The notes beneath the pieces are model-generated. The model saw only the letters and a list, made by a program, of their open reading frames with translations. It searched no databases and had not been told where the DNA came from. The position numbers and the translations under genes were made by a program. From Verrucomicrobiota bacterium (lineage in GTDB: Bacteria > Verrucomicrobiota > Verrucomicrobiia > Limisphaerales > CAIMTB01), in assembly GCA_963205105.1 (NCBI GenBank), contig CAUJJW010000274.1, forward strand, positions 2,377-66,376: a stretch of DNA of 64,000 bases. The letters are read 5' to 3'. Shown here piece by piece: positions 3,254-42,138 of this stretch. Within the stretch, counting starts at the first letter, position 1, and each line of letters opens with the position of its first letter.

Positions 3254-3270
3254 GTCGACGCACGCCCCCG

Positions 3271-21692: not shown

Positions 21693-21759
21693 GCGCATAC
21701 AGGGAAATTCCGCCACCGTATTCACCGATCTCCGACCGAGCCACAGGGACCCGCGCCGA

Positions 21760-25181: not shown

Positions 25182-25186
25182 GAGGG

Positions 25187-26860
25187 TTAGCGGGTCGAGG
25201 TGAGCAGATCCAAGGTGAGGGTCTCTCCAGGCAGAGGAGGCGTGAGGGGCGGTGACTTGCGGTGCTGGGTCACGGCTTCATAGCCGCTCGCCACTTTGAT
25301 CAAGGTGGGCTCCGAGAAGGGTCTCCCGATAACTTGCATCGCGAACGGCATGCCGTCCGAGGGGAAGAATCCGCCGGGAACAATGATCGTCGGCAGTCCG
25401 GTGAAGGAGTGGAGCGTGTTGCGGGTCTCATTGCTGATGCCGCTGCTGCCGTTCACCCGAACATCGGTCGTGTAATCTTGGGGAATGGCTGTTCGGTACG
25501 GCAGCACCAGACAGTCCAGGCGATGTTTGTCCATCAGACCCACCAGGGCTGCCTTCAGCATTTCCTGGTGTTCCTTGATGGCCGCAAACCCGGCATGCCG
25601 GTCCAGCGTCTTGATCTTCGCGGTCTCGATGATCACCGGCTTCACCAGACTCCCACCCTTCGCGATCATTTCCTCAACGCTCCGGATCGGCGCATCCGCC
25701 GGCAGTCCCGCAAGGTAGGCATCAATAGCCAGGGCGCGTGAGTACTTGGCCTCGCCGCCGTCGTTCTGGGTTTCGACCAGATTCAGTCCCGTGAGCACCG
25801 GATCCACGATGACGGCGCCCGCTTCCTTCATGTCGGCCAGCGCCTTTTCAGCCAGGGCTAGGCCTTCGGTATGGATGGGGCCGCTTCGGAACATCTCGCG
25901 CAGCACACCGACCCGCGCTCCGGCCAGCCCCTTTGGGTCCACAAAACTGGTGTACGGACGGTCCGGTAGTTTCCCGATGGACGATTCCGTGATCAGGTCG
26001 CCCGGGTCATAGCCCGCGATGGCATCCAGAACGGCGGCGCAGTCATAGACGCTGCGACCCATGGGCCCGCCCTTCTCCTGGCCTGGCGAACTCCACATCA
26101 TGCCGCGACGGCTGATCAGCCCCTCGGTCATGGCGAAACCGACCAGATTTCCGTGAGCGCTGGGATTGACGATCGAACCGCTGGTGTCGCTGCCGAGTCC
26201 AACCGTGCCGAACCACGCAGCCATGGCGGCGCCAGTACCGGAACTCGATCCACCGCCGTATTTCTTCGGGTTGTACGGGCTCACCACCGGCCCCATCCAG
26301 GTGCTCCCACCTGGAGCCGCCACCCCGTACCAATCCGACTGGTTCAATTTGGCGAGAATGATCGCGCCCGCCTGGCGCAGACGCTCGATCACGAACGCGT
26401 CCCGGGAGGGCTGCGACGTCGCCATCGGTTTGAACCCACCGCTGGTCGGCATGTCTTTCGTGTCGAAGACGTCCTTGGCCATGACCACGATCCCGTGCAA
26501 CGGCGACCGAGGACCCTTCACCCGTCGTTCCGCATCGAGCGCACGCGCCTCTTCCAGGGCCTTCGAGTTCAGCGTCAAAACGGTGTTCAGCTTGGGACCC
26601 TTCTGGTCGTAGGCCTCGATTCGCGCCAGGTAGAGCTGCACCAGCTTCTCAGCCGTCAGCCCACCCGACTCCATCGCCTTCTGCAGTTCCGCCACCGTGG
26701 CGGTCCCCAGGTCGATGGAAACCACGCCATAGGCCGGCAGCGCCATGCCGATCGCCGCAGCAAGGGCCAAAGCCCACCCGTGCGAGCGTCGGGGCGATGG
26801 GGCACGTGACGCCAACCGGTGTTCCGAGGGGATACTCTTGGGGTGAATCGTCGATTTCAT
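25187..26860 (-). CDS. AS family amidase, Sec-type clade
   Basis: VVMAKDVFD, GGSSSGTGA and GSDTSGSIVNP. Signal ...WALALAAAIGMALPAYG. ATG at 26860 overlaps the upstream TGA (ATGA). Confidence 0.92.
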   Translation of the reverse strand: MKSTIHPKSIPSEHRLASRAPSPRRSHGWALALAAAIGMALPAYGVVSIDLGTATVAELQKAMESGGLTAEKLVQLYLARIEAYDQKGPKLNTVLTLNSKALEEARALDAERRVKGPRSPLHGIVVMAKDVFDTKDMPTSGGFKPMATSQPSRDAFVIERLRQAGAIILAKLNQSDWYGVAAPGGSTWMGPVVSPYNPKKYGGGSSSGTGAAMAAWFGTVGLGSDTSGSIVNPSAHGNLVGFAMTEGLISRRGMMWSSPGQEKGGPMGRSVYDCAAVLDAIAGYDPGDLITESSIGKLPDRPYTSFVDPKGLAGARVGVLREMFRSGPIHTEGLALAEKALADMKEAGAVIVDPVLTGLNLVETQNDGGEAKYSRALAIDAYLAGLPADAPIRSVEEMIAKGGSLVKPVIIETAKIKTLDRHAGFAAIKEHQEMLKAALVGLMDKHRLDCLVLPYRTAIPQDYTTDVRVNGSSGISNETRNTLHSFTGLPTIIVPGGFFPSDGMPFAMQVIGRPFSEPTLIKVASGYEAVTQHRKSPPLTPPLPGETLTLDLLTSTR

Positions 26861-28413
26861 GTCGTGAAGTCCTTGGGTTTCTGCCATCCGCCAAACCGCG
26901 TCTCCATCTCCTGCGCCACGGCGATCGACACATCTTCCCGCCACGGGCGGGCCACCACTTGCAGGCCGATGGGAAGTCCTTCCGGGGAGGTGCCAGCCCG
27001 CACCACCAAGGCCGGCCATCCCGTGACGTTGAAGAGGCTTCGGTAACTGGTCGTCTCAGGCGCCTTCTGACCAATCACCCGCGCGGGGGCGGCATCGGTC
27101 GGACACAGCAGCACGTCGTATTTGGAGAACCAGGTCAGCATCCGCGAACGGATTTCATCCTGTTGCTCCAGCGCCTCCTCAAACTCCGGCACCGACAGCG
27201 AAGGACCGTCGAAGACGCGTCCGGGAGAAGGCGGGTGGGTTCCCACACGCGCATTGACCCGGCCGATGAACGCGCCACCGTCCGCACTCCGCACCCGCGG
27301 TAGCAGACCATAGGCTTCCATGTATCCGGAGGGCGCCGATTCCTCGACCACGCAACCCAGGGATTCCATGGCCTTCGCCGCGGCCCGCACCATCGCCACG
27401 GTCTCTGCGGTCGGACCGTGGTAACCGTTCACGTCGGTGAAGAACGCGACGCGAAGCTTCTTGAGATCCACCTTCCACGGATCCAGCACCGGCATCGGCT
27501 TGATCGCGGCGTCCTGAAAGTCCGGCCCCGCCAGGATGGGAAGGAGCAGCGCGATGTCCTCCACCCGGCGCGCCATCGGCCCGATCTGCTGGTAGGCATC
27601 GTAGACGCCGCCGTAATCCACCACGTGACCGGTCCGGGGAACGCGACCTGAGGTGCCCTTCAAGCCGACAATCCCGTTGCAATGAGCCGGATTGCGGATG
27701 CTGCCGCCGAAATCACTGCCAATGTCGAAGGCCGCCCCGCCCGCAGCCACGATGGATCCCGCCCCACCGCTGCTGCCACCGCAGGACCGCGAGGGATCGT
27801 AGGGATTGCGGGTCACTCCGAAGAGGATGTTGACCGTGGTTCCCAGATCCCGAAGTCCAGGACTGCCCAGGGTGAACTCGGGCGTGTTGGTCTTGCCCAG
27901 GAGGATGGCGCCAGCAGCCCGGGCCCTCGCCACCGCGGTGGCGTCGGTGTCCGGAACGCGGGTCAACCACCCGAGAGTGCCACCCGTGGTCCGCACCCCG
28001 GCGGTGTCCAAGGAATCCTTGATGGTCATCGGAACCCCGTGCAGCGGCCCGAGAACTTCCCCTTTTGCCAGGCGTTCATCGGCGAGTTTGGCCTCCAACA
28101 GGGCACGGTCGCCGCACACGGTCACCACGGCATTCAAGATGGGGTTCACCTTGTCGATCTGCTTGAGGAAGGCTTGGACGGCTTCCACCGCCGAAACCTT
28201 CTTGGTCCGGATTTCCTGCGCCAACCGTGACGCCGACATGGAGGTGATCTCTGTCGAGGTGTCGCGCACCAGAGGGGCTACGACCGACGATGCGCGTGCG
28301 TGGACGGCCGTCGCGGACGCCAGAACCGCGGCGACCCGGGACATCGGCTTGAACAAGCTGCGGCGATTCATCGATCCGCGCCGCGTGGTGGAAGAGGTAG
28401 GAGGCATGCTCAT
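26857..28413 (-). CDS. AS family amidase, Tat-type clade
   Basis: PMTIKDS, GGSSGGAGS and GSDFGGSIRNP. NRRSLFK twin-Arg motif. Confidence 0.92.
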   Translation of the reverse strand: MSMPPTSSTTRRGSMNRRSLFKPMSRVAAVLASATAVHARASSVVAPLVRDTSTEITSMSASRLAQEIRTKKVSAVEAVQAFLKQIDKVNPILNAVVTVCGDRALLEAKLADERLAKGEVLGPLHGVPMTIKDSLDTAGVRTTGGTLGWLTRVPDTDATAVARARAAGAILLGKTNTPEFTLGSPGLRDLGTTVNILFGVTRNPYDPSRSCGGSSGGAGSIVAAGGAAFDIGSDFGGSIRNPAHCNGIVGLKGTSGRVPRTGHVVDYGGVYDAYQQIGPMARRVEDIALLLPILAGPDFQDAAIKPMPVLDPWKVDLKKLRVAFFTDVNGYHGPTAETVAMVRAAAKAMESLGCVVEESAPSGYMEAYGLLPRVRSADGGAFIGRVNARVGTHPPSPGRVFDGPSLSVPEFEEALEQQDEIRSRMLTWFSKYDVLLCPTDAAPARVIGQKAPETTSYRSLFNVTGWPALVVRAGTSPEGLPIGLQVVARPWREDVSIAVAQEMETRFGGWQKPKDFTT

Positions 28414-28435: not shown

Positions 28436-30031
28436 TCAAATGGCCGGGGGTTTCCAACCGCCAAGGACACTCTCGAGGTGTTCCGCGACTGCGAACGCCA
28501 CGTCTTCGCGAAATGGTCGGGCAACCACTTGCAGACCGATCGGCAGCCCTTCACCCGTGCCGCAGCGCACCACCACCGAAGGCCAGCCGGTCAGATTGTA
28601 GATCGTCGTGTAACCCGCACCCGACGGCGCGTCCTCGCCAATCAGACGGGCTGGCGAAGAATTGGTCGGACAAATCAGCACGTCGTAGTCCTTGAACCAC
28701 GCCAGATACTGTCGCTTGAGCAGATCGCGCTTCTCCACGATCTCGCTGAGTTCCGGCATCGAAAGCACCGGACTATCGAACTTGCGACCCGCCGCGGGGA
28801 ACGTTGTCCCCACCTTCTCCGCCAACCGCTTGATCCAAAGGCTGCTGTCGGCGAAACGCAGCTTCGGGTAGAGCGGCCAGATTTCGGTATAACCCGTCGG
28901 TGCAGATTCCTTGACGGACTGGCAGGCGGCCTCCAGCACCTTGGCCGCTGACGTCACCGTCTTCACCGTCTCCGCGGTCGGCTTGTGGTAGTTCTCCACA
29001 TCGGAGAAAAACGCCACCCGCAGCTTCTTGAGATCGACGTCGGCAGCGGACCGGAAAGGAGCCGGCACGATGGCGGCATCCAGGTAATCCTGTCCGGCGA
29101 TGATGGGCGTGATGAGGATCAGATCCTCGACCTTGCGGGCCATGGGTCCGATCTGCTGCTGGTTGTCGTAGATGCCACCGTAGTCGACGGCATGCCCGGT
29201 GCGAGGCACGCGCCCCGAGGTGGGTTTGATGCCGGCGATGCCGTTGTGATGGCATGGTGACCGGATGCTGCCGCCGAAATCGCTGCCGATATCGAACCCG
29301 GACCCGTAGGCGGCCACGATGGCCCCTGCCCCACCGCTGCTGCCGGCGCAGCTTCGCTTGGTGTCGTAGGGATTGCGGGTCAGCCCGAACACCAGGTTCA
29401 TCGTCGTTCCGATCGAGTAGGAACCGCTGCCGATGGTGAATTCCGGTGTGTTGGTCTTCCCCAGCAGGATGGCTCCCGCGGCGCGGGCCCTGCCGACCGA
29501 CGTGGCGTCGTGTTGGGGAATGAAATTGAAGCGACCCAGCGTGCCCCAGGTGGACCGGACACCCGCGGTGTCGAGCGAGTCCTTGATGGTCATCGGCACG
29601 CCATGAAGAGGACCCTTGAGCTTGCCTTGAGCCAGGAGTTCGTCGGCCGATTTGGCTTCCTTCAACGCCAGGTCGAAGGATTTGGTCACCACCGCGTTCA
29701 AATGCGGGTTCACCTGTTCAATCCGATCGATGTAGGCTTTCACCACCTCGGTCGCGGACACCTTCTTGGTCCGGATCAACTCCGCCAAACGTGTCGCGGA
29801 GCATTGGGTGAGGACTTCGGTCTTGTCCTTCGAAGCCATGAAGCCGCCGGCCGGGGCTGCGGCAGCCTTGGCGCGCATCGGACTTTGCAGCGCCAACACC
29901 GTCGGGGCCGCCCATGCCTTGGCGCGGGCGATGAATGCCCGCCGACTATCCACGGCGGGTGAGCGGCGTCCGGAGCGTTCCGGGCGCGAAGCGGAAGGTA
30001 CCATTCCTGATTGGGGTTCGGAATTGTGCAT
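28436..30031 (-). CDS. AS family amidase, Tat-type clade
   Basis: PMTIKDS, AGSSGGAGA and GSDFGGSIRSP. SRRAFIARA twin-Arg motif. Start taken at MHNSEPQ. Confidence 0.92.
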   Translation of the reverse strand: MHNSEPQSGMVPSASRPERSGRRSPAVDSRRAFIARAKAWAAPTVLALQSPMRAKAAAAPAGGFMASKDKTEVLTQCSATRLAELIRTKKVSATEVVKAYIDRIEQVNPHLNAVVTKSFDLALKEAKSADELLAQGKLKGPLHGVPMTIKDSLDTAGVRSTWGTLGRFNFIPQHDATSVGRARAAGAILLGKTNTPEFTIGSGSYSIGTTMNLVFGLTRNPYDTKRSCAGSSGGAGAIVAAYGSGFDIGSDFGGSIRSPCHHNGIAGIKPTSGRVPRTGHAVDYGGIYDNQQQIGPMARKVEDLILITPIIAGQDYLDAAIVPAPFRSAADVDLKKLRVAFFSDVENYHKPTAETVKTVTSAAKVLEAACQSVKESAPTGYTEIWPLYPKLRFADSSLWIKRLAEKVGTTFPAAGRKFDSPVLSMPELSEIVEKRDLLKRQYLAWFKDYDVLICPTNSSPARLIGEDAPSGAGYTTIYNLTGWPSVVVRCGTGEGLPIGLQVVARPFREDVAFAVAEHLESVLGGWKPPAI

Positions 30032-30039: not shown

Positions 30040-31572
30040 TCAGATCGAAGGTTTCTTCCAGCCGCCCGTCCGTTCCTCGATGAATTTGGCCACCGCCAGG
30101 GTCACATCGTCCTTCCAGGGTTGGCCGACGATTTGCAGTCCGATCGGGAGACCGTCGGGGCTGGTGCCGGCGCGCACGACCGATCCTGGCCAGCCCGTCA
30201 CGTTGTAGATCCGGGTGTAATTCGCATCGCGCGGTGCCGGCTGATCGAGCCGGGCCGCGGGCACGCCACTCACCGGGCAGAGAATCACATCGTAGTTCTT
30301 CACCCACTGAAGCATCCGGCTCCGCGCGTGATCGACCTCCTCCATGATCTCCAGGAAGTCCGGCGTCGCCGCGTACTTGCCGCTGATCCGCTGTTTGAGT
30401 CCGGGATCCGCCACGACCGTGCCGTAACGCTTGAGCAACCGAACCTGCCAGGCGCCACCCTCAGCTTCCCGCGCCTTATTGGAGATCTCGTAGTCCGACT
30501 TGTAGTTCGGGTGGATGTCCTCCCGCACTTCCGCCCCAGCTTCCCTCAGCCAGCCCGCGGCCGCTTTGACCGTGGCCTGGGTTTCCGGGGTCGGGGTGAA
30601 GACGCCGTTGTCGACGTAGAAGGCCACTCTCAGGCCCGAAAGCTTAACCAGGCTCGGATCCCCCAGTGGAACATCGTAACAAAACGCGTCCTCCATGTCC
30701 TCGCCGCAGATGATCGGCATCAACAGCGCCACATCCTCCACCCGGCGCGCCAATGGCCCGAGTTGCTGCCAGGAGTCGAACAACCCGCCATAGCCCGGGA
30801 CATGCCCCGTACGGGGCGTTCGCCCGGAGGTTGGCTTGATGCCCGCCACCCCGTTGGCGTGGCAGGGCATGCGCACACTGCCACCCAGATCGCTGCCGAT
30901 ATCGAACGCGGCACCGCCCGCGGCCACAATCGCTCCGGCTCCGCCCGAACTGCCCGCCGGCGAATGCGCCAGGTTGTACGGATTGTAGGTTTGCCCGTAG
31001 AGCAGATTCGAGGTGCCCCGGGAGCCTCCACCCATGGTGAACTCCGGCGTGTTCGACTTGCCCAAAAGGATCGCACCGGCCGCCCGCACCCGCGCCACCA
31101 CGGTCGCATCCTTGGCCGGCACATAAAAAGCCCGCCCCAAGGTGCCGGACGTGCTTCGAACTCCCGCAGTCTCCAGCGAATCCTTGATGGTGAACGGAAC
31201 TCCGTGCAGCGGTCCGAGTTTGGCGCCCTTGGCCACCGCTTCGTCCGCCGCCTTGGCTTCCGCCAGGGCCCGCTCAGCGCAGAGGGTCACCACCGCGTTG
31301 ATCTTGGGATTCACTTCGTCGATCCGGCGCAAGTAGGCCTGCACCGCCTCGACCGCTGACACCTTCTTCAGCCGAATGGCCGCGGCCAGCTTGGTCGCCG
31401 ACAGGTAGATCAGTTCATCCGTCGCCTCACCGACGGCTGGTGCTGCCCACGCGCCACCGCCCTTGCTGATGGCCATGGCCCCCAGGGCCGTGGCTCCTGC
31501 GGCGACGAAATGACGCCGGTTCACTGCCCAACCCGGTTGGCTGGGTTTCGAAGTTTTGCTGGAAGTCTTCAT
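30040..31572 (-). CDS. AS family amidase, Tat-type clade
   Basis: PFTIKDS, AGSSGGAGA and GSDLGGSVRMP. NRRHFVAAGATALG twin-Arg signal. Start at 31572 or 31596. Confidence 0.93.
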   Translation of the reverse strand: MKTSSKTSKPSQPGWAVNRRHFVAAGATALGAMAISKGGGAWAAPAVGEATDELIYLSATKLAAAIRLKKVSAVEAVQAYLRRIDEVNPKINAVVTLCAERALAEAKAADEAVAKGAKLGPLHGVPFTIKDSLETAGVRSTSGTLGRAFYVPAKDATVVARVRAAGAILLGKSNTPEFTMGGGSRGTSNLLYGQTYNPYNLAHSPAGSSGGAGAIVAAGGAAFDIGSDLGGSVRMPCHANGVAGIKPTSGRTPRTGHVPGYGGLFDSWQQLGPLARRVEDVALLMPIICGEDMEDAFCYDVPLGDPSLVKLSGLRVAFYVDNGVFTPTPETQATVKAAAGWLREAGAEVREDIHPNYKSDYEISNKAREAEGGAWQVRLLKRYGTVVADPGLKQRISGKYAATPDFLEIMEEVDHARSRMLQWVKNYDVILCPVSGVPAARLDQPAPRDANYTRIYNVTGWPGSVVRAGTSPDGLPIGLQIVGQPWKDDVTLAVAKFIEERTGGWKKPSI

Positions 31573-31628
31573 TGGAATGTTGCCGTCCCGCATCATATGT
31601 CCTTGGGATTCGCCACTAGGCCGCCGAC

Positions 31629-33161
31629 TCAAACTGCCGGTGGCTGCCAGCCGCCCGTCATTGCCTCAATCGCACCCATGACCGCGTAAACCACGTCTTC
31701 GCGCCATGGCCGCCCGATCACTTGGATGCCCATCGGCATGCCTTCCGGTGAAGTGCCCGCCCGAACCACACCAGCCGGCCAGCCGTTGAGGTTGTAGATG
31801 GTGCGATAACTCGCCGTGGAGGGATTGGGCGCGTCGTGGAACGGAGCCGAATACGCATGAACGGGGCAGATCACCACGTCGTACTTCTTCAGCCATCCCA
31901 ATTGCTGCTTCCGGATTCGGTCCTCTTCCTCGAGCAGGAAGGTGAATTCGCCCGCCTTCAGGGTCTTGCCGTTCACCCGGCTCTGGACCATGTGAAACAG
32001 CTTCTCCGTACCCGCCTTCTGGGCGGTGCGGGTGATGTGGCTCCCGCCGCCAGCCGACCGCGACTTCTGCATGATCGCCAACCCCTCGGCGATGGCGGGT
32101 GGTGCGCTCTCTTCGATCGAGGCGACTTCCCCTTCCATGCGGTGAAGAATGCCTCGAACCATCGCCACGGTTTCCGGCCGGGGTTGATGATACCCCTCGC
32201 TGTCGGTGTAGAAGGCCACTCGAAGTTCCTTCAGCTTCACCGCACCAACCGGCCCCAGGGGAACATCGACGACGTGGCTGTCGATCATGTCCGTTCCCTG
32301 AATCACCCGCAGCACCAAGTCGAGATCCTCGACCCGACGGGCGATGGGTCCCAGCTGGGTGCGGGTGTTGAAGATGCCATGCAGGTCCACGATGTGGCCC
32401 GTCCTAGGAACCCGGCAGTTGGTCGGTTTGATTCCAGCCACTCCGTTGAAGTGGCATGGCGACCGAATGCTCCCGCCTGTGTCCGAACCGATGTCGAACG
32501 GCGTGCCCGCCGCAGCCACCAGGGCACCGGAGCCGCCGCTGCTGCCGCCCGGAATCCGCGCGGTGTCGTAGGGATTGTTGGTGCGCCCGTACACGAGATT
32601 ATCCGTGAACGAGCCCATGGTGAATTCGGGGGTATTGGTTTTCCCGAGCAGGATGGCTCCGGCCGCCCTCAACCGAGCAGTCACCGTCGCATCCTCAGCA
32701 GGAACGAAACCCTTCCTGCCCAGGGTACAGCCGGTGCTGACCACCCCCGCGGTATCGATGGAGTCCTTCAACGTCATCGGAACTCCATGGAGCACGCCCA
32801 GTTTGCCGCCTTTGGCTCGGAGTTCATCCGCAGCCCGGGCTTCGGAACGAGCCCTGTCGAAACAGGGCATGACCAGCGCATTGAGACTTGGGTTCACCGA
32901 CTCGATCCGCCGGATGTAGGCCTCGACCACCTCGGTGGAGGAGACTTTGCCGGCACGAATCATCTCGGCGATCTTCACGGCGGACTGGCTCACCAGATCC
33001 CCGGGAGCAGCCGCCGCGGTCGCCCGCGACGCACCACCCCACGAGGCGGCAGCCATCACCGCCATGCCACCGCCCACCCGTGCCAGGAACTCACGCCGGC
33101 AACTCACTCCGGCTCCTGTCTCCGTTCCTACTTCCTGAGAATCTTGTTCGGTGATCGTCAT
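31629..33161 (-). CDS. AS family amidase, Tat-type clade
   Basis: PMTLKDS, GGSSGGSGA and GSDTGGSIRSP. CRREFLARVGGG twin-Arg signal. ATG is 1 nt after the TBDR stop. Confidence 0.93.
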   Translation of the reverse strand: MTITEQDSQEVGTETGAGVSCRREFLARVGGGMAVMAAASWGGASRATAAAAPGDLVSQSAVKIAEMIRAGKVSSTEVVEAYIRRIESVNPSLNALVMPCFDRARSEARAADELRAKGGKLGVLHGVPMTLKDSIDTAGVVSTGCTLGRKGFVPAEDATVTARLRAAGAILLGKTNTPEFTMGSFTDNLVYGRTNNPYDTARIPGGSSGGSGALVAAAGTPFDIGSDTGGSIRSPCHFNGVAGIKPTNCRVPRTGHIVDLHGIFNTRTQLGPIARRVEDLDLVLRVIQGTDMIDSHVVDVPLGPVGAVKLKELRVAFYTDSEGYHQPRPETVAMVRGILHRMEGEVASIEESAPPAIAEGLAIMQKSRSAGGGSHITRTAQKAGTEKLFHMVQSRVNGKTLKAGEFTFLLEEEDRIRKQQLGWLKKYDVVICPVHAYSAPFHDAPNPSTASYRTIYNLNGWPAGVVRAGTSPEGMPMGIQVIGRPWREDVVYAVMGAIEAMTGGWQPPAV

Positions 33162-33162: not shown

Positions 33163-35844
33163 TCAGAAGGTCCTTCCAAGGGTGAACTCGAAGTTGATCG
33201 GCTGGCGCACGCCGACCATCATTCCGTTGTTGGCGCCGCGAACGTAGAACTGCTCGTCGGTCAGGTTGTTGACATCGAACTTCGCGCTCCAGGCTCCCTT
33301 GGCGTAGAAGAGTGAAGCGTTGAGAACCGTGGCCGATGGAAGATTCCAGATCAGAGTACGGTCAGCAGCGAATCCACCTTGGTGCGACACACCAAACGCG
33401 CCGCCCAGACCCGAGCTGTGATTGTAGGTGACGAAGAGGTTCAGGATTTTGTCCGGAATACCAGGAACCTCGGAGTACACGTCGCCGCCCAGGATGCGGA
33501 TCTGGGGAACACCACCCCAACCGAACGCTTCGGCAGGCGCGATGATTTCGCCGGTCGCCGGATCCCGCACGTCCGAGAAACCAGCGTACCGCCCATTGAT
33601 GCGCACGGTTTGGTCGGAGCCATCCAGGTACTCGGCTTTGCTGAATGAGCCGGAAGCGACAATGCTCACGCTGGGGATCGGCACATAGCGCAGTTCGACC
33701 TCGATGCCTCGGCTCTCGGTCTTGTCCACGGAGGCCTCGGCATCGCCTTGGGCGAACGAGATGCGGTTCTGTTCGAACACCGCGAAGGTTGCGAAGAGCT
33801 TGTTCTCCAAAAGCTGGGTCTTCACACCCACTTCCATGATTTGCGATTGCCCATAGGCACCGCCGCGCCAGGTGGCAGGGGCAATCGACGCATCCGAGGT
33901 GTCCACGATGAGCGCGGCTTGCTGGGCCATCGTGAAGTAGGGACGGATGTTCAGCGGGAGAGCGTAGCTCACACTCGCATTCCACGAGAGCGCCGAGTCA
34001 CTGCCGCGGGTGGTCGACGGACTGGTGGTGAGACGACTGTCCAAGGCGTCGGTCGTGCCAATGTTCGCGGCGTTCTTCCCAGCAAACACGCCCGCAGGTT
34101 GGGTATGATCGCCGTCCACATAGTCAAACCGGCCGCCCAGGATCAGGTTCACCTTCTCGAAGAAGGTCTGGTCCGTGAGCAAACCGACGCCCGCCTCGAT
34201 GTACTGGGAATCGTTGATCTGGGTGATGGCACTTCCATCCAGTCCCCGCTTCTCGAGGAAGCTGTAGAAGGTGTCGTTCGGGGTGAAGTTCCCGTTCGAG
34301 CCACCCATCAGATCGCGGCGCTGATCGAAGTCCGAATTGGTGGTGTTCTCGCGGAAGGTGTCGGTGTACCGAATGTTCGGTGAGGCCAGGATCTGACCTT
34401 CCCACCATTCCGGCAGGTAGTCCGCCTTGTGGGCTGCCGTGAATTTCTCCTCAAACAGTCGTGGCTTTTGGATCTGCGAGAAGGGATTCCGGCCGTCCTT
34501 GATCTGATTGTAGAAGTGATAATAGAGCTGGTTCTTGAGCGTGAGTTCCTCGTTCGAGTCGTTGATGACGTCGAAGAAGAAGTCATACACGTCCGCGTCG
34601 TAGTAATCTTCGCCCAAAGTCTTGGAGGTGTCCGCGTCCACCAGACGGAAGGAGGAGTAGTCCAGCTGCCAGGGTTCCGGCAGTCCGTTCAGTGCGGACG
34701 TTCCGGTGCCAATCGGCGCACCGGTCACGATGTTGACGAGGGGACCATTCGGCCGACCGTTGGCGTCCACGCTTTGTTTCTTCAGATTATTGACCTGATC
34801 GGGCGTGGAAATCGTCCCGAAGCTGACGAAGATCGGGTTGTAGGTGGCCGTCGCGGGACGGGACCCGAACAGTTCCCGTTCCGAGATCCGGCCGTTGCCG
34901 TCCGCGTCGAGCTGGTTGGCGAACCCGCCGCTCCAGTACTTCCCCTGGGTGAACAGTTCCTCGGTCACGCGGTTGATACCGCCGTTGAGGCCGCCCTTGG
35001 AGAACTGGGCCACTCCGCCGAATTCGGCGCGCCAGCTGTCGGTCAGCTCCGCCGAGACGGCGATCTGGTTGACGAAGTGTTTGTCGAAAGCGGTCTCGTA
35101 ATACGAACCCGAGTCTTCGAGGTAGCCGTAATAGTAAAAGCCGGCCTTGCGATCCCCGGGTAGACCCTTGATCGGGCCGCCGAAGTCAAAGGTCGCCACG
35201 CGCCGGTCCCAGGACCCGACACTGAGCGAGACCTTGCCCTCCGCCTTCTCCATGTATTTCCCGGTCACACTTCGGGAGGTCTTCGGATTGAAGTTCAGGT
35301 ACCCACCGATTCGGCCGCCGCCGAAGATCGGCGACGCGGGGCCGCGCACGACTTCGATGCTGTCGAAGGCGGTGAAGATGGTGCGGTAATTGCCCTGCGG
35401 ATCGGGCTTCTTCATGCCGCGGAAGTAATAGTCGCCCGCCTGGTTGCGGACGTTGATGCCGCCTTGCAGGCCGAAGCGGAAATTGGTGTAGGTGCTGGGA
35501 GCAACGCGGTAGAGGTCCTCCACGTTTTCCACGCCCGCCGCGTTCAGCAGTTCCGCGCTGAGCACCGTGACCGACCGCGGTGTCTCCAGCAGAGACTTGC
35601 CAAAACCGATGACGCTTTCGACCGGCGCCGTGGGCAGGATGAACGTCGGGTCGGTCCCGGCCGTCGACTCCAGCGCCTCGACCTCACCCGAGGGATCTTC
35701 GTTCATCGTGCCGGATGCCGGCAGCGACGATTGGGCCGGAGGCGTGCTGCTGGCCGCGGGAGTCTGGGACAACGCCCGGGTGGTGGTTGCGTCCGCGAGG
35801 GCGCCGAGGGCGACTAGGGTTCCGAGTGACTTAGGTAGGCTCAT
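33163..35844 (-). CDS. TonB-dependent receptor (893 aa)
   Basis: Signal peptide, plug-like LLETPRSVTVLSAELL...VEVVRGPASPIFG..GG.LNF..K, many amphipathic beta-strand patterns, C-terminal FDVNNLTDEQFY and a terminal Phe (..GRTF). Confidence 0.92.
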   Translation of the reverse strand: MSLPKSLGTLVALGALADATTTRALSQTPAASSTPPAQSSLPASGTMNEDPSGEVEALESTAGTDPTFILPTAPVESVIGFGKSLLETPRSVTVLSAELLNAAGVENVEDLYRVAPSTYTNFRFGLQGGINVRNQAGDYYFRGMKKPDPQGNYRTIFTAFDSIEVVRGPASPIFGGGRIGGYLNFNPKTSRSVTGKYMEKAEGKVSLSVGSWDRRVATFDFGGPIKGLPGDRKAGFYYYGYLEDSGSYYETAFDKHFVNQIAVSAELTDSWRAEFGGVAQFSKGGLNGGINRVTEELFTQGKYWSGGFANQLDADGNGRISERELFGSRPATATYNPIFVSFGTISTPDQVNNLKKQSVDANGRPNGPLVNIVTGAPIGTGTSALNGLPEPWQLDYSSFRLVDADTSKTLGEDYYDADVYDFFFDVINDSNEELTLKNQLYYHFYNQIKDGRNPFSQIQKPRLFEEKFTAAHKADYLPEWWEGQILASPNIRYTDTFRENTTNSDFDQRRDLMGGSNGNFTPNDTFYSFLEKRGLDGSAITQINDSQYIEAGVGLLTDQTFFEKVNLILGGRFDYVDGDHTQPAGVFAGKNAANIGTTDALDSRLTTSPSTTRGSDSALSWNASVSYALPLNIRPYFTMAQQAALIVDTSDASIAPATWRGGAYGQSQIMEVGVKTQLLENKLFATFAVFEQNRISFAQGDAEASVDKTESRGIEVELRYVPIPSVSIVASGSFSKAEYLDGSDQTVRINGRYAGFSDVRDPATGEIIAPAEAFGWGGVPQIRILGGDVYSEVPGIPDKILNLFVTYNHSSGLGGAFGVSHQGGFAADRTLIWNLPSATVLNASLFYAKGAWSAKFDVNNLTDEQFYVRGANNGMMVGVRQPINFEFTLGRTF

Positions 35845-35947: not shown

Positions 35948-35963
35948 AGCACCGCTCATGCCA
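35948..35963 (-). promoter_or_regulatory. Putative sigma-54 (-24/-12) promoter for the TBDR-amidase arm
   Basis: The minus strand reads (C)TGGCATG-AGCG-GTGCT: correct GG-N10-GC spacing with 2 deviations from TGGCACG-N4-TTGCW. About 105 bp upstream of the TBDR ATG. Confidence 0.55.
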
Positions 35964-36353
35964 GCACTTCACCGGACCCATGAGGGCACCAACACCCGGC
36001 AGAGGCCATGAACCGACATGATGCCACCAGACCCTGTCTGTTCATTCTGCCGACGCACCCGCCCCCTCCAGGTCCATCCCTTCACGCCGGGGCCATCGAA
36101 TGAACCAATCCCATCCGGTGGCATGACTGGTGCTCATGAGTGGAGGCCGACCTGCTTCGCTTGCTTTGTCTCTTATTCGCCAATTTCTGGTACGCCTTTG
36201 CCCATGCTGACCAGATTGCTTCACCGGGGGAGGCTATTCCAAGGAGGGCATGGGTCAGGGAGGGTGGATAGCGGTCGTTCGTGCTGGGGTTCGCATACTT
36301 GAATAGAGGCACATCCCTGTCGGCGGCCTCATTCATGACCTCGACCCACCGAG

Positions 36354-36369
36354 TGGCACGTCGCTTGCT
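36354..36369 (+). promoter_or_regulatory. Putative sigma-54 (-24/-12) promoter for the DUF3450-exb-tonB operon
   Basis: TGGCACG-TCGC-TTGCT is a perfect match to the TGGCACG-N4-TTGCW consensus, 150 bp upstream of the ATG at 36520. Confidence 0.75.
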
Positions 36370-36519: not shown

Positions 36520-37299
36520 ATGAAGTCATTCACCTCAAGACTCCCCGCCCTGATCGCCACCGGATTTCTGGTGACCGCGATCACCCCATCGGTTACCAGC
36601 GCAACACCTCTGGAGGATCTCCGAAATCTCTGGAAGGAGTGGTCCAAGGTCAAAGGCACCATCTCGGAGGAAAAGAACAACTGGGCCCGCGAACAACAGT
36701 CCATTGCGGACTCCATCGCGGTTTCACGCCAGGAGGTGGAACTGCTGACCTCCCGGCTCAAGGAACTGAACAGCGGCACCACCGGGACCGAGAAGCAGCG
36801 CTCCGAGCTTCTCGACAAGATCGCGGCCTCCAAGACCAGCCTCGCCGTGTTCGCCGAGGCGATCGATAAGTACGAAACCAAGATGCGCGAACTGGTTCCG
36901 GTGATCCCACCCCAGTTGCGCACCGAGCTGTCCGCCCTACTGCAACGCCTGCCCGCCGAGGGCAAACCCACCGCGCTGCCGGTGTCGCAAAGAATTCAGA
37001 CGGTCATCGCCTTCCTCGCCCAGCTCGACAAGTTCAATGCCGGACCGACGTTGATCAGCGAAATCAAGGAGGTGGAACCCGGCAAGTCGCTGGAAGTCAA
37101 AACGCTCTACTTCGGCCTGGGTGCCGCCTACTTCACGGACGCAGCGGCCACCTATGCGGGCCACGGCTATCCGACGCTGGAAGGCTGGAAATGGACCTCG
37201 GTCGACGCGGCCACCGCCAAGCACATCGCGGAGGCGATCTCGATCTATCAAAACGAAAAGCAGCCCGCCTTTGTCTCCCTGCCCGCCCAAATCCGTTGA
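36520..37299 (+). CDS. DUF3450-family periplasmic coiled-coil protein (TtpB-like)
   Basis: Signal peptide, long heptad-rich helix, and a VKTLYFGLGAAYF beta motif followed by GWKW. First gene of the exb/tonB cluster. Confidence 0.75.
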   Translation: MKSFTSRLPALIATGFLVTAITPSVTSATPLEDLRNLWKEWSKVKGTISEEKNNWAREQQSIADSIAVSRQEVELLTSRLKELNSGTTGTEKQRSELLDKIAASKTSLAVFAEAIDKYETKMRELVPVIPPQLRTELSALLQRLPAEGKPTALPVSQRIQTVIAFLAQLDKFNAGPTLISEIKEVEPGKSLEVKTLYFGLGAAYFTDAAATYAGHGYPTLEGWKWTSVDAATAKHIAEAISIYQNEKQPAFVSLPAQIR

Positions 37300-37338
37300 T
37301 TCACGGCCCGCCGCTCCATTCCCAAACTTCTTCTCCCC

Positions 37339-38823
37339 ATGATCATGTCATCGAAACCCTCGCGCGTTCTTCTCACGCTGTCCCTCCTGGTGGCGCTGAG
37401 CCCCCTGTCCCGCCTCGGCGCCCAGGACATTTCCGGCAACACCACGGCTGCCCAAACTCAGCTCGTTCAAGCGCAGCAGGAGTTGTCCAAGCTGCGCGAC
37501 GAGATTACCGCCGCGAAAATCCCGCTCTCCACCGCGCTGCGGGAGGCCGAAACCGAACTCTTCGCCAAACGCCGCGAATCGGAACGCCTGCAACGCTTGG
37601 CCGACAACCGCAACGTTGACCTTCGCAACCTGGAGAACGAACAGAAGCTTCGCGCCGAGGAAGTCGACTACCTGTCGACGCTCCTCACCGACTACCTCAG
37701 CCGCCTCAATTCGACGGTGGACGCCTCCGAAATCCAGATCGTGGGCGAGTCGCTGACCAAGATGCTCAACGTCGGGGAAACGCCGGACATTGCGCGGGAG
37801 CAGATCTTCAAGACCAAACTGGGCTCCATCGACATGGGGTTTGATCGGATCAAGAACCTGCTCGGTGGCGCCAAGTTTGACGGCAAAGCCATCCTTCCCG
37901 GCGGCAGTCTCCAGGATGGAACCTTCCTTCTTCTTGGGCCGTTGTCTTATTTCGCCAGCAAGGACGGAAAAGTCGCGGGACTCGTCGAACGCGGCGCCGC
38001 CATGCACCCCAAGGTGACGGTGTTCTCCGAAAAGGAAATTCCTGCCATCGCAGCCCTGGCCAGCAAGGGCGAGGGACTGCTCTCCATCGACACCACCATG
38101 GGCAAGGCCAAGGCCATCGCCACCAGCAAGGAGTCGATTAGTGAACACATCAAGAAGGGTGGCATCTGGATGATTCCGATCATCGGTTTCGGCATCGCGG
38201 CGCTCTGCATGGCGCTCTTCAAGTTCGGCGAAATCAGCACCGTGAAAGCCCTGCCCGCCAACGTCCTGGAGAAGGTGCTCGCTCTCGTCAGCCAGGGAAA
38301 CATCCCGGAGGCGGCCAAAATGATCCGCACCCATCCAGGACCGGCGGCCAAGATGCTGTCCGAGGCAGTCAAGAATCTCCACCTGCCCAAGGAAGTCGTC
38401 GAAGAAATGATGTTCGAGACGATGCTCGAGACCCAGCCCAAGCTGGAGCGAGGTCTTTCCTTCATCTCGGTGACCGCTTCGGTGGCTCCGCTGCTCGGTC
38501 TGCTGGGCACCGTCACCGGCATGATGACCACCTTCAACCTCATCACCCTCTTCGGTACCGGCGATGCGAAGTCGCTCTCGTCCGGAATTTCCGAGGCACT
38601 CATCACCACCGAGTACGGCCTGATTGTCGCCATCCCTGCCCTCTTGCTCTACGGCTACCTATCCCGCCGAGTGAACGGCATGATGGGCGATTTGGAGCAG
38701 ATTTCCATCGCGTTCAGCAACGGCGTCTCGGCCATTCGCACGCCGGCTAGCGAACCCACCCTGAACCCGGAATCCGGCAAATCGTCTCCGCCGATGGGTT
38801 CGGGCCTGCCCTCCCCCGCGTGA
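37339..38823 (+). CDS. Long MotA/TolQ/ExbB proton-channel protein with periplasmic N-terminal domain (TtpC-like)
   Basis: Signal peptide and coiled coil, then KGGIWMIPI, APLLGLLGTVTGM and GISEALITTEYGLIVAIP. Confidence 0.88.
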   Translation: MIMSSKPSRVLLTLSLLVALSPLSRLGAQDISGNTTAAQTQLVQAQQELSKLRDEITAAKIPLSTALREAETELFAKRRESERLQRLADNRNVDLRNLENEQKLRAEEVDYLSTLLTDYLSRLNSTVDASEIQIVGESLTKMLNVGETPDIAREQIFKTKLGSIDMGFDRIKNLLGGAKFDGKAILPGGSLQDGTFLLLGPLSYFASKDGKVAGLVERGAAMHPKVTVFSEKEIPAIAALASKGEGLLSIDTTMGKAKAIATSKESISEHIKKGGIWMIPIIGFGIAALCMALFKFGEISTVKALPANVLEKVLALVSQGNIPEAAKMIRTHPGPAAKMLSEAVKNLHLPKEVVEEMMFETMLETQPKLERGLSFISVTASVAPLLGLLGTVTGMMTTFNLITLFGTGDAKSLSSGISEALITTEYGLIVAIPALLLYGYLSRRVNGMMGDLEQISIAFSNGVSAIRTPASEPTLNPESGKSSPPMGSGLPSPA

Positions 38824-38874
38824 ACGTGCTCCGAGAGTTCCCGCAACTCCAACTCCTCAGTCCTAAGCTCCCTT

Positions 38875-39588
38875 ATGCAAGCTGACTTCACCAAAGAGGT
38901 CCTGAAACTCTGGGCGGATGGCGGTTGGTGCATGGTGCCGCTCGCGTTTCAAGCCCTCGCCATTTACTACATCTCCTTCGCGCTCTTCTTCGAAATCCGC
39001 GGTCATCCCGCACTCCGAACGAGCGAAGACGAGTGGGGCCATTGGATCGATCGTCCCGACGACGCCAAAGGCGAGATCGCGCAGATCTTCCGTTTCACAC
39101 AGCAAGGTGTCACCTCCCTGGACACCATCCGCCAGCGGTTCGTGGAGGTCACCAAGGCTTACATTCCCGCCTTGGACCGTCGGATTCGGTTCGTTTTCAT
39201 GATTATTGGCACGGCTCCACTGACGGGCCTGCTCGGAACCGTCACCGGCATGTTGGCGACCTTCGACGGCATCGCCGGTGGTGCCGGCGGAGCGGACACC
39301 GTCGATGTCGTGGCTGGCGGCATCTCTGAGGCTTTGATCACCACGGAAACAGGTCTGGTCATCGCCATCCCTGCTTACGTCGTTCTCGCTCGCATCCGTC
39401 GGTTGCGGGATCAGCTCGAACTGTTCCTGCGCCGGGCGGAAACAATGACACTTCGGCGTTTTGCCCGCGCGCTGCCGGGCGATCCCGATGCCGCAGCTCT
39501 GCCCCCTCACGGGACACCTCCCCATTCGGGACCGACCACTCCCGACGACTTGCCACTACCCATCCCATCCATTCAGCCCGCCACCTAA
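38875..39588 (+). CDS. exbB: ExbB (MotA/TolQ/ExbB family)
   Basis: GGWCMVPL, APLTGLLGTVTGM and GISEALITTETGLVIAIP. Confidence 0.9.
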   Translation: MQADFTKEVLKLWADGGWCMVPLAFQALAIYYISFALFFEIRGHPALRTSEDEWGHWIDRPDDAKGEIAQIFRFTQQGVTSLDTIRQRFVEVTKAYIPALDRRIRFVFMIIGTAPLTGLLGTVTGMLATFDGIAGGAGGADTVDVVAGGISEALITTETGLVIAIPAYVVLARIRRLRDQLELFLRRAETMTLRRFARALPGDPDAAALPPHGTPPHSGPTTPDDLPLPIPSIQPAT

Positions 39589-39627
39589 CCCCACTTCCAG
39601 CAATCTCCCGAACCCGAATCCCCGCTT

Positions 39628-40038
39628 ATGGCCAGACGCTCCCTCTCCCGTGCCATCCAAGTCAGTGACGAGATCAACATCTCGCCCTTGATCGACATGG
39701 TCTTCATTCTGCTCATCTTCTTCATCGTCACCACGGTCTTCGTCGAGGAGACCGGGGTGAATGTGAACAAGCCCCAGGCCAGCGCGGCCATCCCGCTGGA
39801 AGCCAACAGCATCCTCCTCGCCATCACCGACCAGGGCAAGGTGGTGTACGGCGGTCGCGAGGTCGGCATCGCTGGTGTCCGTTCCATCGTCAAACGCCTG
39901 GTTCAGGGCAATGCCGACATGCCCACCATCGTTCAGGCGGACAAAGTCGTGCCTACCGAGCTATTGGTGAAGGTCATCGACGAAGCCAAGCTGGGTGGTG
40001 CCAAGGCCGTGAGCATCTCCACCGAGGGCAACCGCTAG
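39628..40038 (+). CDS. exbD: Biopolymer transporter ExbD
   Basis: [22 protein letters not shown] (conserved Asp in the TM), VQADK and [10 protein letters not shown]. Confidence 0.93.
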
Positions 40039-40053
40039 TCCCCATCACGCACC

Positions 40054-40740
40054 ATGGCATCCCCTTCTCCAACGCGTCTTGCTCCTTTCCGGGTACCGTC
40101 CCGGAGCCGACGGCGACTTGCGCCCACGGTCGCCATGCTCGTTTGCGGCGCCGCAACGTTCCTCCTGCTACCGTTCACCACCCTCATCACCGGAGCAGCC
40201 AGCAACAAGAGGGACCTCACGAGCATCGACCTTAGCCTGCCTCCTCCTCCTCCTCCTCCTCCGGAGATCGACAAACCACCGGAGGAACCACCGCCGCAGG
40301 AGGACACTCCCCCGCCCGACTCCCCCAACAACCAACTGTCACTCGCGCAGATGGATGTGGCTCTCAACGTCGGCTTCGGTGACGCCATGGCCGGTGGCTT
40401 TTCGGTGGAAGGCTTCGCCACCCAGTCCGAGGCCACCACCGTCGCCGACCTCGGGATCTTCGACATCAAGGACCTCGACAAACCCCCGACCCGCACCCGC
40501 ACGGTGACCCCGGTTTACCCCGCGGAACTCAAGCGGGCCCGGGTTCAAGGCAACGTGGTCCTGATGATCATCATCGACCAGAACGGCCGCGTCTCAGTCG
40601 ACAAGGTTGTCGAATCCAGCGCCCGTGAGTTCGAACAATCTGCCATCACGGCGGCTGAACAATGCATCTTCGAGCCTCCCATGAAAGGCGGCCAAGCCGT
40701 TCGCGCCCGTTACCGCATGCAAGTTCCCTTCCGTCTCTGA
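40054..40740 (+). CDS. tonB: Energy transducer TonB
   Basis: N-terminal TM, Pro-rich spacer, and a C-terminal PVYP..LKRARVQGNV...IDQNGRV...FEPPMKGG TonB domain. Confidence 0.9.
   Translation: MASPSPTRLAPFRVPSRSRRRLAPTVAMLVCGAATFLLLPFTTLITGAASNKRDLTSIDLSLPPPPPPPPEIDKPPEEPPPQEDTPPPDSPNNQLSLAQMDVALNVGFGDAMAGGFSVEGFATQSEATTVADLGIFDIKDLDKPPTRTRTVTPVYPAELKRARVQGNVVLMIIIDQNGRVSVDKVVESSAREFEQSAITAAEQCIFEPPMKGGQAVRARYRMQVPFRL
40240..40260 (+). repeat. (CCT)7 trinucleotide microsatellite encoding TonB poly-Pro
   Basis: Seven perfect CCT codons in a row, read directly. Confidence 0.85.
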
Positions 40741-40785
40741 TTTGATCTCATCCCCTGATTTCCAGCTCATCCCGTCTCCCATCCC

Positions 40786-42138
40786 ATGAAACTCAAAATC
40801 TTCGCCTCCAGTCTCGCGCTCGCCTTACTCCCCGCCTCGGGAGCTGACCCGTTGTTCGAAAATTCCTGGAATAATCCCCAGTTCGTCGCCCGTTTCGTCG
40901 GAACCTACGGGTTCGACACCGCCTTGAACCCGGGAATCACCCAGGAGGAGAAGCTGGTGTTCGACAAGTTGGTCCCTCTGATCCAATCCCAGCCCGCCCA
41001 GGCGATAACCGCCCTGAAAGCAGCGATCACCCCCACCAGCAGTGCGGCCCTCGATTTCACCCTGGGCAACCTCTACTTCCAGTCGAAGTCATTTCCCGAA
41101 GCCACCGCCGCCTACCAGGGTGCGCTCAAAAAATTCCCGAACTTCCTCCGGGTTCACAAGAACCTGGGTCGTCTCTTCGTGCAGCAGGGCGATGCCAAGT
41201 CCGCCTTGGCCCACCTCTTGCGCGTGATTGAACTCGGCGGCGCCGAAGGCGACATCTACGGGCTGGTCGGCTACTGCTACCTCCAGGGAGGAGCCGTCAC
41301 CAGCGCCCTCGACGCCTACCGATCCGCCCTCCTGTTCGCTCCCAAGAGCCGGGATTGGCGCATGGGCAAAATCCAGTGTCTGGTGAACCTGGGCGTGCAC
41401 AAAGAAGCCGCCGCCATGCTGGACGAACTCATCACCGAAAAACCCGACGACGCCGGTCTTTGGCTGCTGCAAGCCAACGCCTACGTGGCTTCGGGAAATT
41501 CGGCGGACGCCGCCGTCAATCTGGAGCTGGTGCGTCAGATGGGGAAAGCGACCCCGATCAGCCTTGCGCTCCTCGGCGACATTTACATCAACGCCAACCA
41601 ACCCGACCTCGCTCTCGCCGCCTATCAGGACCTGCTCAAGGGCGAACAAATCGACCAGGAACGAGCCCTCCGTGCCGCCCGCATTCTGGCCTCCCGCGGT
41701 GCTTGGACCGAAGCCGACGCCTACCTCAAGGAACTGAACCAACGCCTGAGCGCGAAACTGCCCGCCTCCGGTCAAAGCGAAGTGGCGTCCCTGCTGGCCA
41801 AAGTTGCTCTCGCCCGTGGTGAGGACGACAAGGCTGCCGCCATGCTCACCAAGGTGCTGGAAACCGACCCGCTCAACGGCAGGGCGCTCCTGCTTCTGGC
41901 CGATTATCACTGGAAAAAGAATGACCGCGAGCGAGCCGACCTCTACTACACTCGCGCCGCGACCGTGGAAGATGTGCGGGTCGAGGCGCTGCTCCAGCAC
42001 GCCCGCATGAATGTCGCCCTCAAGGAGTTTGCGGCCGCCACCAAGCTCCTCGCCCGGGCCCAGTCCATCAAACCCCAGGCCCACGTGGGTGATTTCCTCG
42101 CCAAAGTGGAAGCAGCAGCCCGTGCCACCCGGTTCTGA
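40786..42138 (+). CDS. Tetratricopeptide-repeat protein (TtpD-like), exported
   Basis: Signal peptide and multiple TPR-like helical repeats (LGNLYF..., LGRLFVQQG..., LLGDIYIN...). Last gene of the tonB cluster. Confidence 0.85.
   Translation: MKLKIFASSLALALLPASGADPLFENSWNNPQFVARFVGTYGFDTALNPGITQEEKLVFDKLVPLIQSQPAQAITALKAAITPTSSAALDFTLGNLYFQSKSFPEATAAYQGALKKFPNFLRVHKNLGRLFVQQGDAKSALAHLLRVIELGGAEGDIYGLVGYCYLQGGAVTSALDAYRSALLFAPKSRDWRMGKIQCLVNLGVHKEAAAMLDELITEKPDDAGLWLLQANAYVASGNSADAAVNLELVRQMGKATPISLALLGDIYINANQPDLALAAYQDLLKGEQIDQERALRAARILASRGAWTEADAYLKELNQRLSAKLPASGQSEVASLLAKVALARGEDDKAAAMLTKVLETDPLNGRALLLLADYHWKKNDRERADLYYTRAATVEDVRVEALLQHARMNVALKEFAAATKLLARAQSIKPQAHVGDFLAKVEAAARATRF

Follow-up and report, generated by a model that had tools for sequence, protein, structure and literature searches.

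TonB-dependent transporters are known to carry metal chelates, cobalamin and carbohydrates, together with a small number of aromatic compounds and peptides. Some receptors are paired with a hydrolase that acts on the imported molecule. In PfeA-PfeE, IroN-IroE and CfrA-Cee, a single esterase (PfeE, IroE or Cee) processes enterobactin, or a trilactone of its type, in the periplasm, and the pair is under Fur control. Other receptors belong to carbohydrate loci, including the carbohydrate utilization (CUT) loci of Xanthomonas with SuxA, MalA and NagA of Caulobacter, and the SusC/D polysaccharide utilization loci of Bacteroidota, which are regulated by substrates or nutrients and not by iron. Here we describe P0001, a TonB-dependent transporter encoded at positions 33163-35844 (minus strand) of a 64,000-nucleotide stretch of DNA (the window) from a soil or freshwater Verrucomicrobiota bacterium (GenBank assembly GCA_963205105.1, contig CAUJJW010000274.1, positions 2,377 to 66,376). 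Its gene stands at the head of a long array of genes for exported amidohydrolases. An earlier reading of the window made from its letters (the sequence-only reading) had proposed that the receptor heads an amidase operon and that its ligand is probably the common substrate class of the amidases. We find that receptor and amidases are linked in two phyla, and we lean toward the view that the receptor imports amide-bearing molecules.

The locus resembles several described systems in part. Like FhuA, FoxA, FpvA and PiuA (structures 1by3, 6i96, 2o5p and 5fp1), P0001 has a plug enclosed by some 22 barrel strands, ends in an aromatic residue and is predicted to depend on TonB. However, it is approximately 170-200 residues longer, with large extracellular insertions in the predicted structure, and its locus has a sigma-54 motif and amidase neighbors instead of a Fur box and iron genes. 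Like PfeA-PfeE, IroN-IroE and CfrA-Cee, the locus places a TonB-dependent importer beside an exported hydrolase that would process the imported molecule, but it encodes 15 amidohydrolases of four families and has a sigma-54 motif and no iron signature. It shares with the carbohydrate loci a receptor, periplasmic degradative enzymes, a regulator and the dedicated energizer that some of them have. In contrast to those loci, it has no glycoside hydrolase, SusD-like lid, SusC match or inner-membrane importer, and it ends in a resistance-nodulation-division (RND) exporter instead.

The enzymes and the energizer also have described counterparts. The peptide amidase Pam of Stenotrophomonas maltophilia (1m21/1m22 and 5ac3) has, like the enzymes here, a signal peptide and a Ser-cisSer-Lys triad, and it matches one of them (A6) over its full length; three enzymes of the same clade differ from Pam in lacking an Arg after the nucleophile. 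To our knowledge, the natural role of Pam is unknown. The Vibrio TonB2-type energizer, TtpB-TtpC-ExbB-ExbD-TonB-TtpD, has the same six-gene order by domain (DUF3450, long ExbB, ExbB, ExbD, TonB, TPR) as an operon next to P0001, whereas the operon in the window and one receptor gene are arranged head to head, with paired sigma-54 motifs. Full-text literature searches returned no published description of receptor-amidase loci and no paper connecting Pam with a TonB-dependent receptor. The passages of PMC8399759 that deal with a bile-salt amidase and with TonB concern other proteins.

Results

P0001 is a complete TonB-dependent transporter

P0001 is 893 amino acids long. Its sole Pfam match is the Plug domain PF07715 (residues 85-181; 43.3 bits, cut-off 23.9), and no Pfam barrel model matched. 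The barrel is apparent in an AlphaFold2 model built with 78 homologs (mean predicted local distance difference test score, pLDDT, 84.4; predicted template modeling score 0.83), which has about 22 long strands plus the plug, with residues 1-63 disordered. In Foldseek searches this model aligned end to end with FhuA, FoxA, PiuA, FpvA and Fiu (E ~1e-36), and the alignments with FhuA, FoxA and FpvA span about 870-900 columns. The N terminus has a predicted signal peptide (approximately residues 1-19) followed by a disordered Pro/Ser/Thr linker to about residue 63, and a family-conserved DPxxILPxxP at residues 64-74 is a candidate TonB box. The protein ends in GRTF, that is, in an aromatic Phe. P0001 is complete and a member of the TonB-dependent transporter superfamily; the sequence-only reading had likewise taken it for a TonB-dependent receptor.

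P0001 is only 12-16% identical to solved receptors, and by sequence the nearest of these match in the plug region alone (E 1e-9). The sequence-only reading had said that proven siderophore or B12 receptors among the close homologs would refute it. No such close homolog was found, as no solved receptor comes nearer than these plug-only matches. P0001 scored below the curated cut-off of every siderophore, heme or other receptor model that it matched in NCBIfam, including TIGR01783 (102.1 against 223.5) and the FoxA and FhuA equivalogs (47.7 against 1300 and 37.1 against 803). There was no SusC/RagA model among these matches, and the next gene encodes an amidase, not a SusD-like lipoprotein. There was also no match to the STN domain (PF07660) and no adjoining sigma or FecR gene. 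By the membership criteria of these profiles, P0001 is outside the siderophore receptors, the SusC-type transporters and the STN transducers. The genome encodes six Plug-domain receptors in all. We considered whether P0001 is one of many paralogs and rejected this, as no paralog of P0001 was detectable among the six.

The receptor gene heads an 18-gene unit

The junction between the receptor and the first amidase (A1) reads TTC TGA c ATG, with the receptor stop at 33163-33165 and the amidase ATG at 33161, which leaves the 1-nucleotide (nt) gap reported in the sequence-only reading. From the receptor down to position 5493, 18 genes lie on the same strand with short gaps over approximately 30 kb. 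They encode the receptor, 11 amidase-signature enzymes, three asparaginase-like enzymes, one FmdA/AmdA-family enzyme, a periplasmic adaptor (MFP) and an RND permease. The proposed amidase operon is thus much larger than that term would imply, with 15 enzymes and an MFP-RND pair. Within the array, the frequency of sigma-70-like promoters and of intrinsic-terminator-like sites does not exceed that in shuffled sequence, and the whole 30 kb is probably co-transcribed.

Inside the unit there are no iron- or sugar-related genes. To this extent the statement in the sequence-only reading that none are nearby holds; a sugar-type ABC system (748-4320) is found past the RND pump and, in the other direction and about 20 kb off, there is a metal P-type ATPase, both outside the unit. 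Domain annotation of the unit genes identified no inner-membrane importer.

The receptor-amidase link is conserved in two phyla

Within the genome (8.18 Mb in 412 contigs), which the names of its database matches put near the Opitutaceae, the association of P0001 with amidases stands out. There are 24 amidase-signature genes, 11 of them in the unit, and regions within 10 kb of one make up only about 3% of the genome. The contigs that carry the other five TonB-dependent receptors hold no amidase-signature gene.

Receptor and amidases are also present or absent together. A receptor ortholog (65-74% identity) was found in 5 of 15 genomes of the same taxonomic family, and amidases of the A1 type (the Tat clade described below; A1 search, E<=1e-120) were found in exactly the same five. 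Four of the ten genomes that lack both are at least 92% complete. In four congeneric genomes the order is receptor, A1, A2 and onward, then MFP and RND, as far as the contigs reach.

The sequence-only reading had called for a neighborhood analysis of receptor homologs, and this analysis supports its link between receptor and amidases. A profile scan of species-representative genomes gave 77 loci with members of the receptor family (31-75% identity). An amidase, asparaginase or formamidase gene is present in the flanks (within 10 kb) of 59 of these, and such a gene is downstream on the same strand in 49 of the 68 loci that have at least 2 kb of downstream sequence; related genomes in these counts are not independent samples. 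In a FastTree phylogeny of 105 receptors, the amidase-linked ones are scattered over several Opitutaceae clades, the Nevskiaceae (Solimonas and Hydrocarboniphaga), the Steroidobacteraceae, other Gammaproteobacteria and one Devosia metagenome-assembled genome. Despite divergence of the receptors to 31-41% identity, the link is found in two phyla. An MFP-RND pair recurs at the ends of the arrays in both phyla.

Some parts of the module are much more similar between the phyla than the receptor is. The gammaproteobacterial copies are 72-77% identical to the window's RND permease, 56-67% to its adaptor, about 60% to its divergent asparaginase-like protein, and 69-75% to some of its Sec-clade amidases, whereas the receptors are about 33% identical (L045, L050, L051, L057 and L087). 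Because the enzymes and the pump are so much closer to their gammaproteobacterial copies than the receptor is, the enzyme-pump module has probably moved between phyla.

The gammaproteobacterial receptors (L044-L091) occur as tandem pairs from two paralogous clades. The pairs are preceded by genes for an extracytoplasmic function (ECF) sigma factor and a FecR/DUF4880 protein, and some of the receptors have an STN domain. ExbD pairs and a TPR protein often come after these receptors, and between the receptor pair and the amidases is a recurrent open reading frame (ORF) of about 611 amino acids that has no Pfam match (for example, L050:12387-14222).

One Opitutaceae sister clade has no amidases; their place is taken by three secreted proteins in tandem, each about 470 amino acids long and with a GHSTSG nucleophile-elbow motif. 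The sister-clade loci are L047, L058, L060, L062, L063, L069, L073 and L081 (for example, L047:12595-16922), and an RND pump is nearby. These hydrolases belong to no Pfam family; an AlphaFold model (pLDDT 79) has an alpha/beta-hydrolase fold, and its best matches are lipases and esterases, although these are weak (template modeling scores 0.3-0.44). There was no siderophore esterase among the 50 matches listed. Since the sister clade exchanges amidases for these hydrolases, the constant parts of the module are the receptor, exported acyl-hydrolases and the RND pump.

Outside the core module the flanks vary among loci. In Opitutus sp. GAS368, for example, a 2379-amino-acid protein with FG-GAP, MBG and HYR repeats and a SIS-domain protein are encoded upstream of the receptor on the same strand (L036:1292-8431). 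The recurrent unannotated ORFs of the flanks mostly have no Pfam match, and many clusters of flank ORFs were rejected as genes, being off-frame ORFs of GC-rich genes.

A predicted sigma-54 promoter precedes the receptor

A sigma-54-type -24/-12 element, TGGCATGAGCGGTGCT, is located at 35948-35963 (minus strand), some 120 nt ahead of the receptor ATG. Facing the TonB2-type operon is a second element, TGGCACGTCGCTTGCT, at 36354-36369 (plus strand). Of 8 orthologous loci, 7 carry the motif TGGCAY-N5-GTGCT ahead of the receptor, oriented as it is here. In the wider family, 20 of 42 Verrucomicrobial loci have a sigma-54 motif upstream of the receptor, as against 1 of 35 loci from Pseudomonadota. 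In 1.35 Mb of locus sequence, 22 of the 46 same-strand motif matches fall in the short windows upstream of the receptor.

Genome-wide, the strict pattern was observed 34 times against about 29 expected from base composition, and this count alone is not significant. Our argument for sigma-54 therefore rests on position, orientation and conservation. Four of the 34 genome matches are correctly oriented 120-170 nt upstream of the receptor, the TonB2-type operon and two further amidase arrays, on contigs C299 and C212. We conclude that a predicted sigma-54 promoter is conserved ahead of the receptor.

The two further arrays have no receptor and encode Sec-clade amidases, six in one (C299:28606-39632, locus L092) and three in the other (C212:61258-66206, locus L093). 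In each, a sigma-54-type motif lies 120-145 nt upstream of the first gene. The shared motif suggests that these arrays and the window locus could form one regulon. In all, the genome has genes for at least 16 sigma-54 enhancer-binding proteins (Sigma54_activat).

A third sigma-54-like element, TGGCATGACTGGTGCT, is at 36119-36134 (plus strand), midway between the two predicted divergent promoters. It overlaps the dyad CATGA-N7-TCATG, which recurs in G002 and L015. The site could be either an activator site or an extra promoter. In a dyad search of the 26 loci with a sigma-54 motif upstream of the receptor, this was the sole dyad found, and it was limited to three close orthologs.

We also looked for signs of iron regulation, which the sequence-only reading had named as evidence that would count against it. 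In the window's intergenic region and upstream of 27 gammaproteobacterial ECF sigma genes, the best matches to a 19-mer Fur consensus (the Fur motif of Verrucomicrobia is not established) covered 9-13 of 19 positions, a level that shuffled sequence also reaches. No iron genes (ferric reductase, PepSY, siderophore ABC importer or other) were seen in the window or in the sampled flanks.

The enzymes and the efflux pump

All 15 enzymes have export signals, seven of the twin-arginine (Tat) type and eight of the Sec type. The 11 amidases match PF01425 (E 1e-72 to 1e-106), and the Lys, cis-Ser and Ser residues of the triad (the K, GGSS-type and nucleophile-Ser positions) are intact in every one. They divide into two clades, Tat and Sec, with internal identities of 46-59% and 40-62%, respectively; members of different clades are 25-31% identical. 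Because mutual identity is 25-62%, we regard them as old, diversified paralogs and not as a recent amplification.

The Tat clade begins with A1 (31629-33161; all genes of the unit are on the minus strand), the enzyme whose ATG follows the receptor stop and which carries the Tat signal SCRREFLARVGG. It continues with A2 (30040-31596, NRRHFV), A3 (28436-30031, SRRAFI) and A4 (26857-28413, NRRSLF), and farther along the unit with A10 (13425-15002, SRRRFI) and A11 (11788-13425, SRRDLF), for which the start could be the ATG at 13425 or that at 13380. The nearest solved structures to A1 are generic amidases, GatA, urethanases, biuret hydrolase, NylA and FAAH.

The Sec clade is peptide-amidase-like. 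It consists of A5 (25187-26860), whose start overlaps the stop of A4, A6 (23589-25181), A7 (21760-23337), A8 (20100-21698) and A9 (16289-17869). The start of A7 is uncertain: a TTG at 23337 yields a signal peptide, and the ORF is open up to 23592. The nearest solved structures to A6 are the amidase 5ewq and Pam (1m21 and 5ac3), matched over the full length at E ~1e-62. PRK08137 is the best-matching NCBIfam amidase model for A5, A6 and A9, and the Sec-clade enzymes score below the curated cut-off of every NCBIfam amidase model. From the nucleophile onward, A5, A6 and A7 (21760-26860) read SIVNP, SVQNP and SIVIP, and the other eight amidases have S(I/V)R.

The remaining enzymes are interspersed with the amidases. 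Two asparaginase-like enzymes are encoded at 19026-20093 (Sec signal) and 17874-19016 (Tat signal, NRRSAL), an FmdA_AmdA protein of the acetamidase/formamidase family at 15054-16142 (Sec signal), and a divergent asparaginase-like protein of about 592 amino acids with a signal peptide at 9854-11632. The adaptor gene (8623-9819) begins 34 nt after this last enzyme gene and is followed by that for a HAE1/Mdt-type RND efflux permease (5493-8600), which closes the unit. The locus contains no gene for an outer-membrane factor to go with the MFP-RND pair.

The energizer operon and a regulator

A six-gene TonB2-type operon (36520-42138, plus strand) encoding DUF3450, long ExbB, ExbB, ExbD, TonB and TPR proteins is upstream of the receptor and divergent from it. 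Such an operon also adjoins the receptor in G002, G010 and G004 and in several Opitutaceae loci. In G011 there is none beside the receptor, indicating that it is dispensable for the locus in some relatives. Next to the operon is a gene for a LysR-family regulator (42164-43207, plus strand) that travels with the locus. A second TonB2-type energizer (DUF3450, long ExbB, ExbD and TonB; contig C275:2532-8919, locus L094) adjoins another of the six receptors, a 1078-amino-acid open frame, and dedicated receptor-energizer pairs may be the rule in this organism.

Discussion

Several features support a functional coupling of the receptor and the amidase battery: synteny in two phyla, matched presence and absence, export of the enzymes, lack of a Fur signal and a shared sigma-54 motif. 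This part of the sequence-only reading is supported. Its further suggestion, that the ligand is one common class of amidase substrate, may be too simple given four enzyme families.

On balance, and with some reserve, we favor the view that P0001 imports one or more amide-bearing organic molecules that are hydrolyzed in the periplasm with release of ammonia, the resulting acids then being exported. We envision that the adjoining TonB2-type ExbB, ExbD and TonB proteins would energize import of the cargo into the periplasm. There, the 15 exported amidohydrolases of four kinds (Tat-clade amidase-signature, Sec-clade peptide-amidase-like, type-II-asparaginase-like and one FmdA-like) would hydrolyze its amide groups. 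The ammonia or amine released could be assimilated as nitrogen, and the de-amidated acids could be expelled by the MFP-RND pump, whose genes come last in the presumed transcription unit. Transcription would start at the sigma-54 promoter, with an activator encoded elsewhere in the genome. The most plausible candidates for the cargo are peptide-type or acyl-type amides of a few hundred daltons.

We infer the identity of the cargo, the purpose of nitrogen scavenging and the role of the pump from this combination of genes. Nitrogen scavenging is favored because ammonia is the product that the four enzyme families most clearly have in common, because the unit has no carbon-catabolic genes and no inner-membrane importer, and because the genome's other amidase arrays have the predicted sigma-54 promoter too. 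The RND pump encoded last in the operon points to a strategy of stripping off the nitrogen and discarding the skeleton, which is not known to have been documented among TonB-dependent systems. The acyl parts of the cargo may be lipophilic, as hinted by the RND pump and by the lipase-like substitution in the sister clade.

A number of points weigh against this view. The nearest characterized relatives of P0001, by sequence and by fold, are all siderophore receptors. In Gammaproteobacteria the family members have ECF sigma and FecR genes ahead of them, a layout familiar chiefly from iron-siderophore systems. TonB-dependent receptors are normally specific, and one receptor feeding four enzyme families would be unusual. 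Small amides could cross porins without such a receptor. Regulation by sigma-54 is not by itself proof of nitrogen control; no enhancer-binding protein is encoded on the contig of the receptor, and the dyad search of the 26 sigma-54-preceded loci revealed no NtrC-like or widely shared upstream activator site.

It is also conceivable that lipophilic acyl amides are taken up mainly as a source of carbon; fatty-acid amides, N-acyl amino acids or amines, synthetic oligo-amides and urethanes would be examples. In this case, FAAH-, NylA- or urethanase-like amidases would split the cargo, nitrogen would be secondary, and the RND pump would protect against fatty or aromatic acids or redistribute them. 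The nearest structures to A1 do include urethanases, the 6-aminohexanoate cyclic-dimer hydrolase and FAAH, but neighbors in a structure database at E 1e-45 do not define a substrate. In both phyla the locus is constantly accompanied by an Mdt-type RND pump, and carriers include Hydrocarboniphaga, Solimonas and Steroidobacteraceae. The unit, however, has no beta-oxidation, CoA-ligase or other carbon-catabolic gene, and its three asparaginase-like enzymes and one formamidase-like enzyme fit ammonia release better. The three secreted hydrolases with a lipase/esterase fold that replace the amidases in the Opitutaceae sister clade would also be in keeping with lipophilic substrates, although their fold matches are weak (0.3-0.44). 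We consider this explanation unlikely.

We regard a role in iron acquisition, the chief rival to our view, as quite improbable. Here the receptor would pirate foreign amide-linked siderophores or metallophores (peptidic or hydroxamate), the amidases would cut the backbone and free the metal, as PfeE, IroE and Cee do with enterobactin, and the RND pump would expel the fragments. Such a role would account for the resemblance of P0001 in sequence and fold to receptors of the FhuA, FoxA, PiuA, FpvA and FptA type and for the STN domains and ECF sigma/FecR genes of gammaproteobacterial homologs. By analogy, a receptor with a periplasmic hydrolase and an efflux pump would also resemble siderophore pathways. 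But P0001 is far below the cut-off for siderophore receptors (102 against 223.5 bits), the window's intergenic region and the stretches ahead of the 27 gammaproteobacterial ECF sigma genes showed no Fur-box-like site, and no iron genes were seen in the window and sampled flanks. Moreover, the predicted promoter is of the sigma-54 type and is common to amidase arrays that have no receptor. Iron release offers no part to asparaginase- and formamidase-like enzymes, whose substrates are primary amides, and the sister-clade hydrolases are lipase/esterase-like, with no siderophore esterase among the 50 matches listed.

That the receptor imports an unrelated cofactor or metal and is merely co-transcribed with the amidases is very improbable: nothing specific speaks for it in a genome with only six receptors, and against it are the linkage kept across two phyla despite divergence of the receptors to 31-41% identity, the exact match of presence and absence within the family (5/15 genomes) and the 1-nt gap to the first amidase.

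Returning to import of amide-bearing molecules, a broader proposal follows for the receptor family, one on which we are almost evenly divided and incline slightly to doubt. The family could be the gate of unrecognized amide-nitrogen utilization loci, a nitrogen counterpart of the polysaccharide utilization loci. This module would be common to Verrucomicrobiota, where it would be under sigma-54 control, and to Gammaproteobacteria, where it would be under surface signaling through ECF sigma factors and FecR.

The locus supplies a context for peptide-amidase-like enzymes, and there are cultured carriers in which the family could be studied, among them Solimonas soli DSM 21787 (L080), S. flava DSM 18980 (L082), S. 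aquatica DSM 25927 (L051), Hydrocarboniphaga effusa AP103 (L057) and the Opitutaceae strain MBA3-11 (L026). If our view is correct, a transporter family devoted to amides would add a new class of cargo to TonB-dependent transport. Amide nitrogen is a large part of organic nitrogen, and such a family would help to explain how soil and freshwater bacteria gain access to it.

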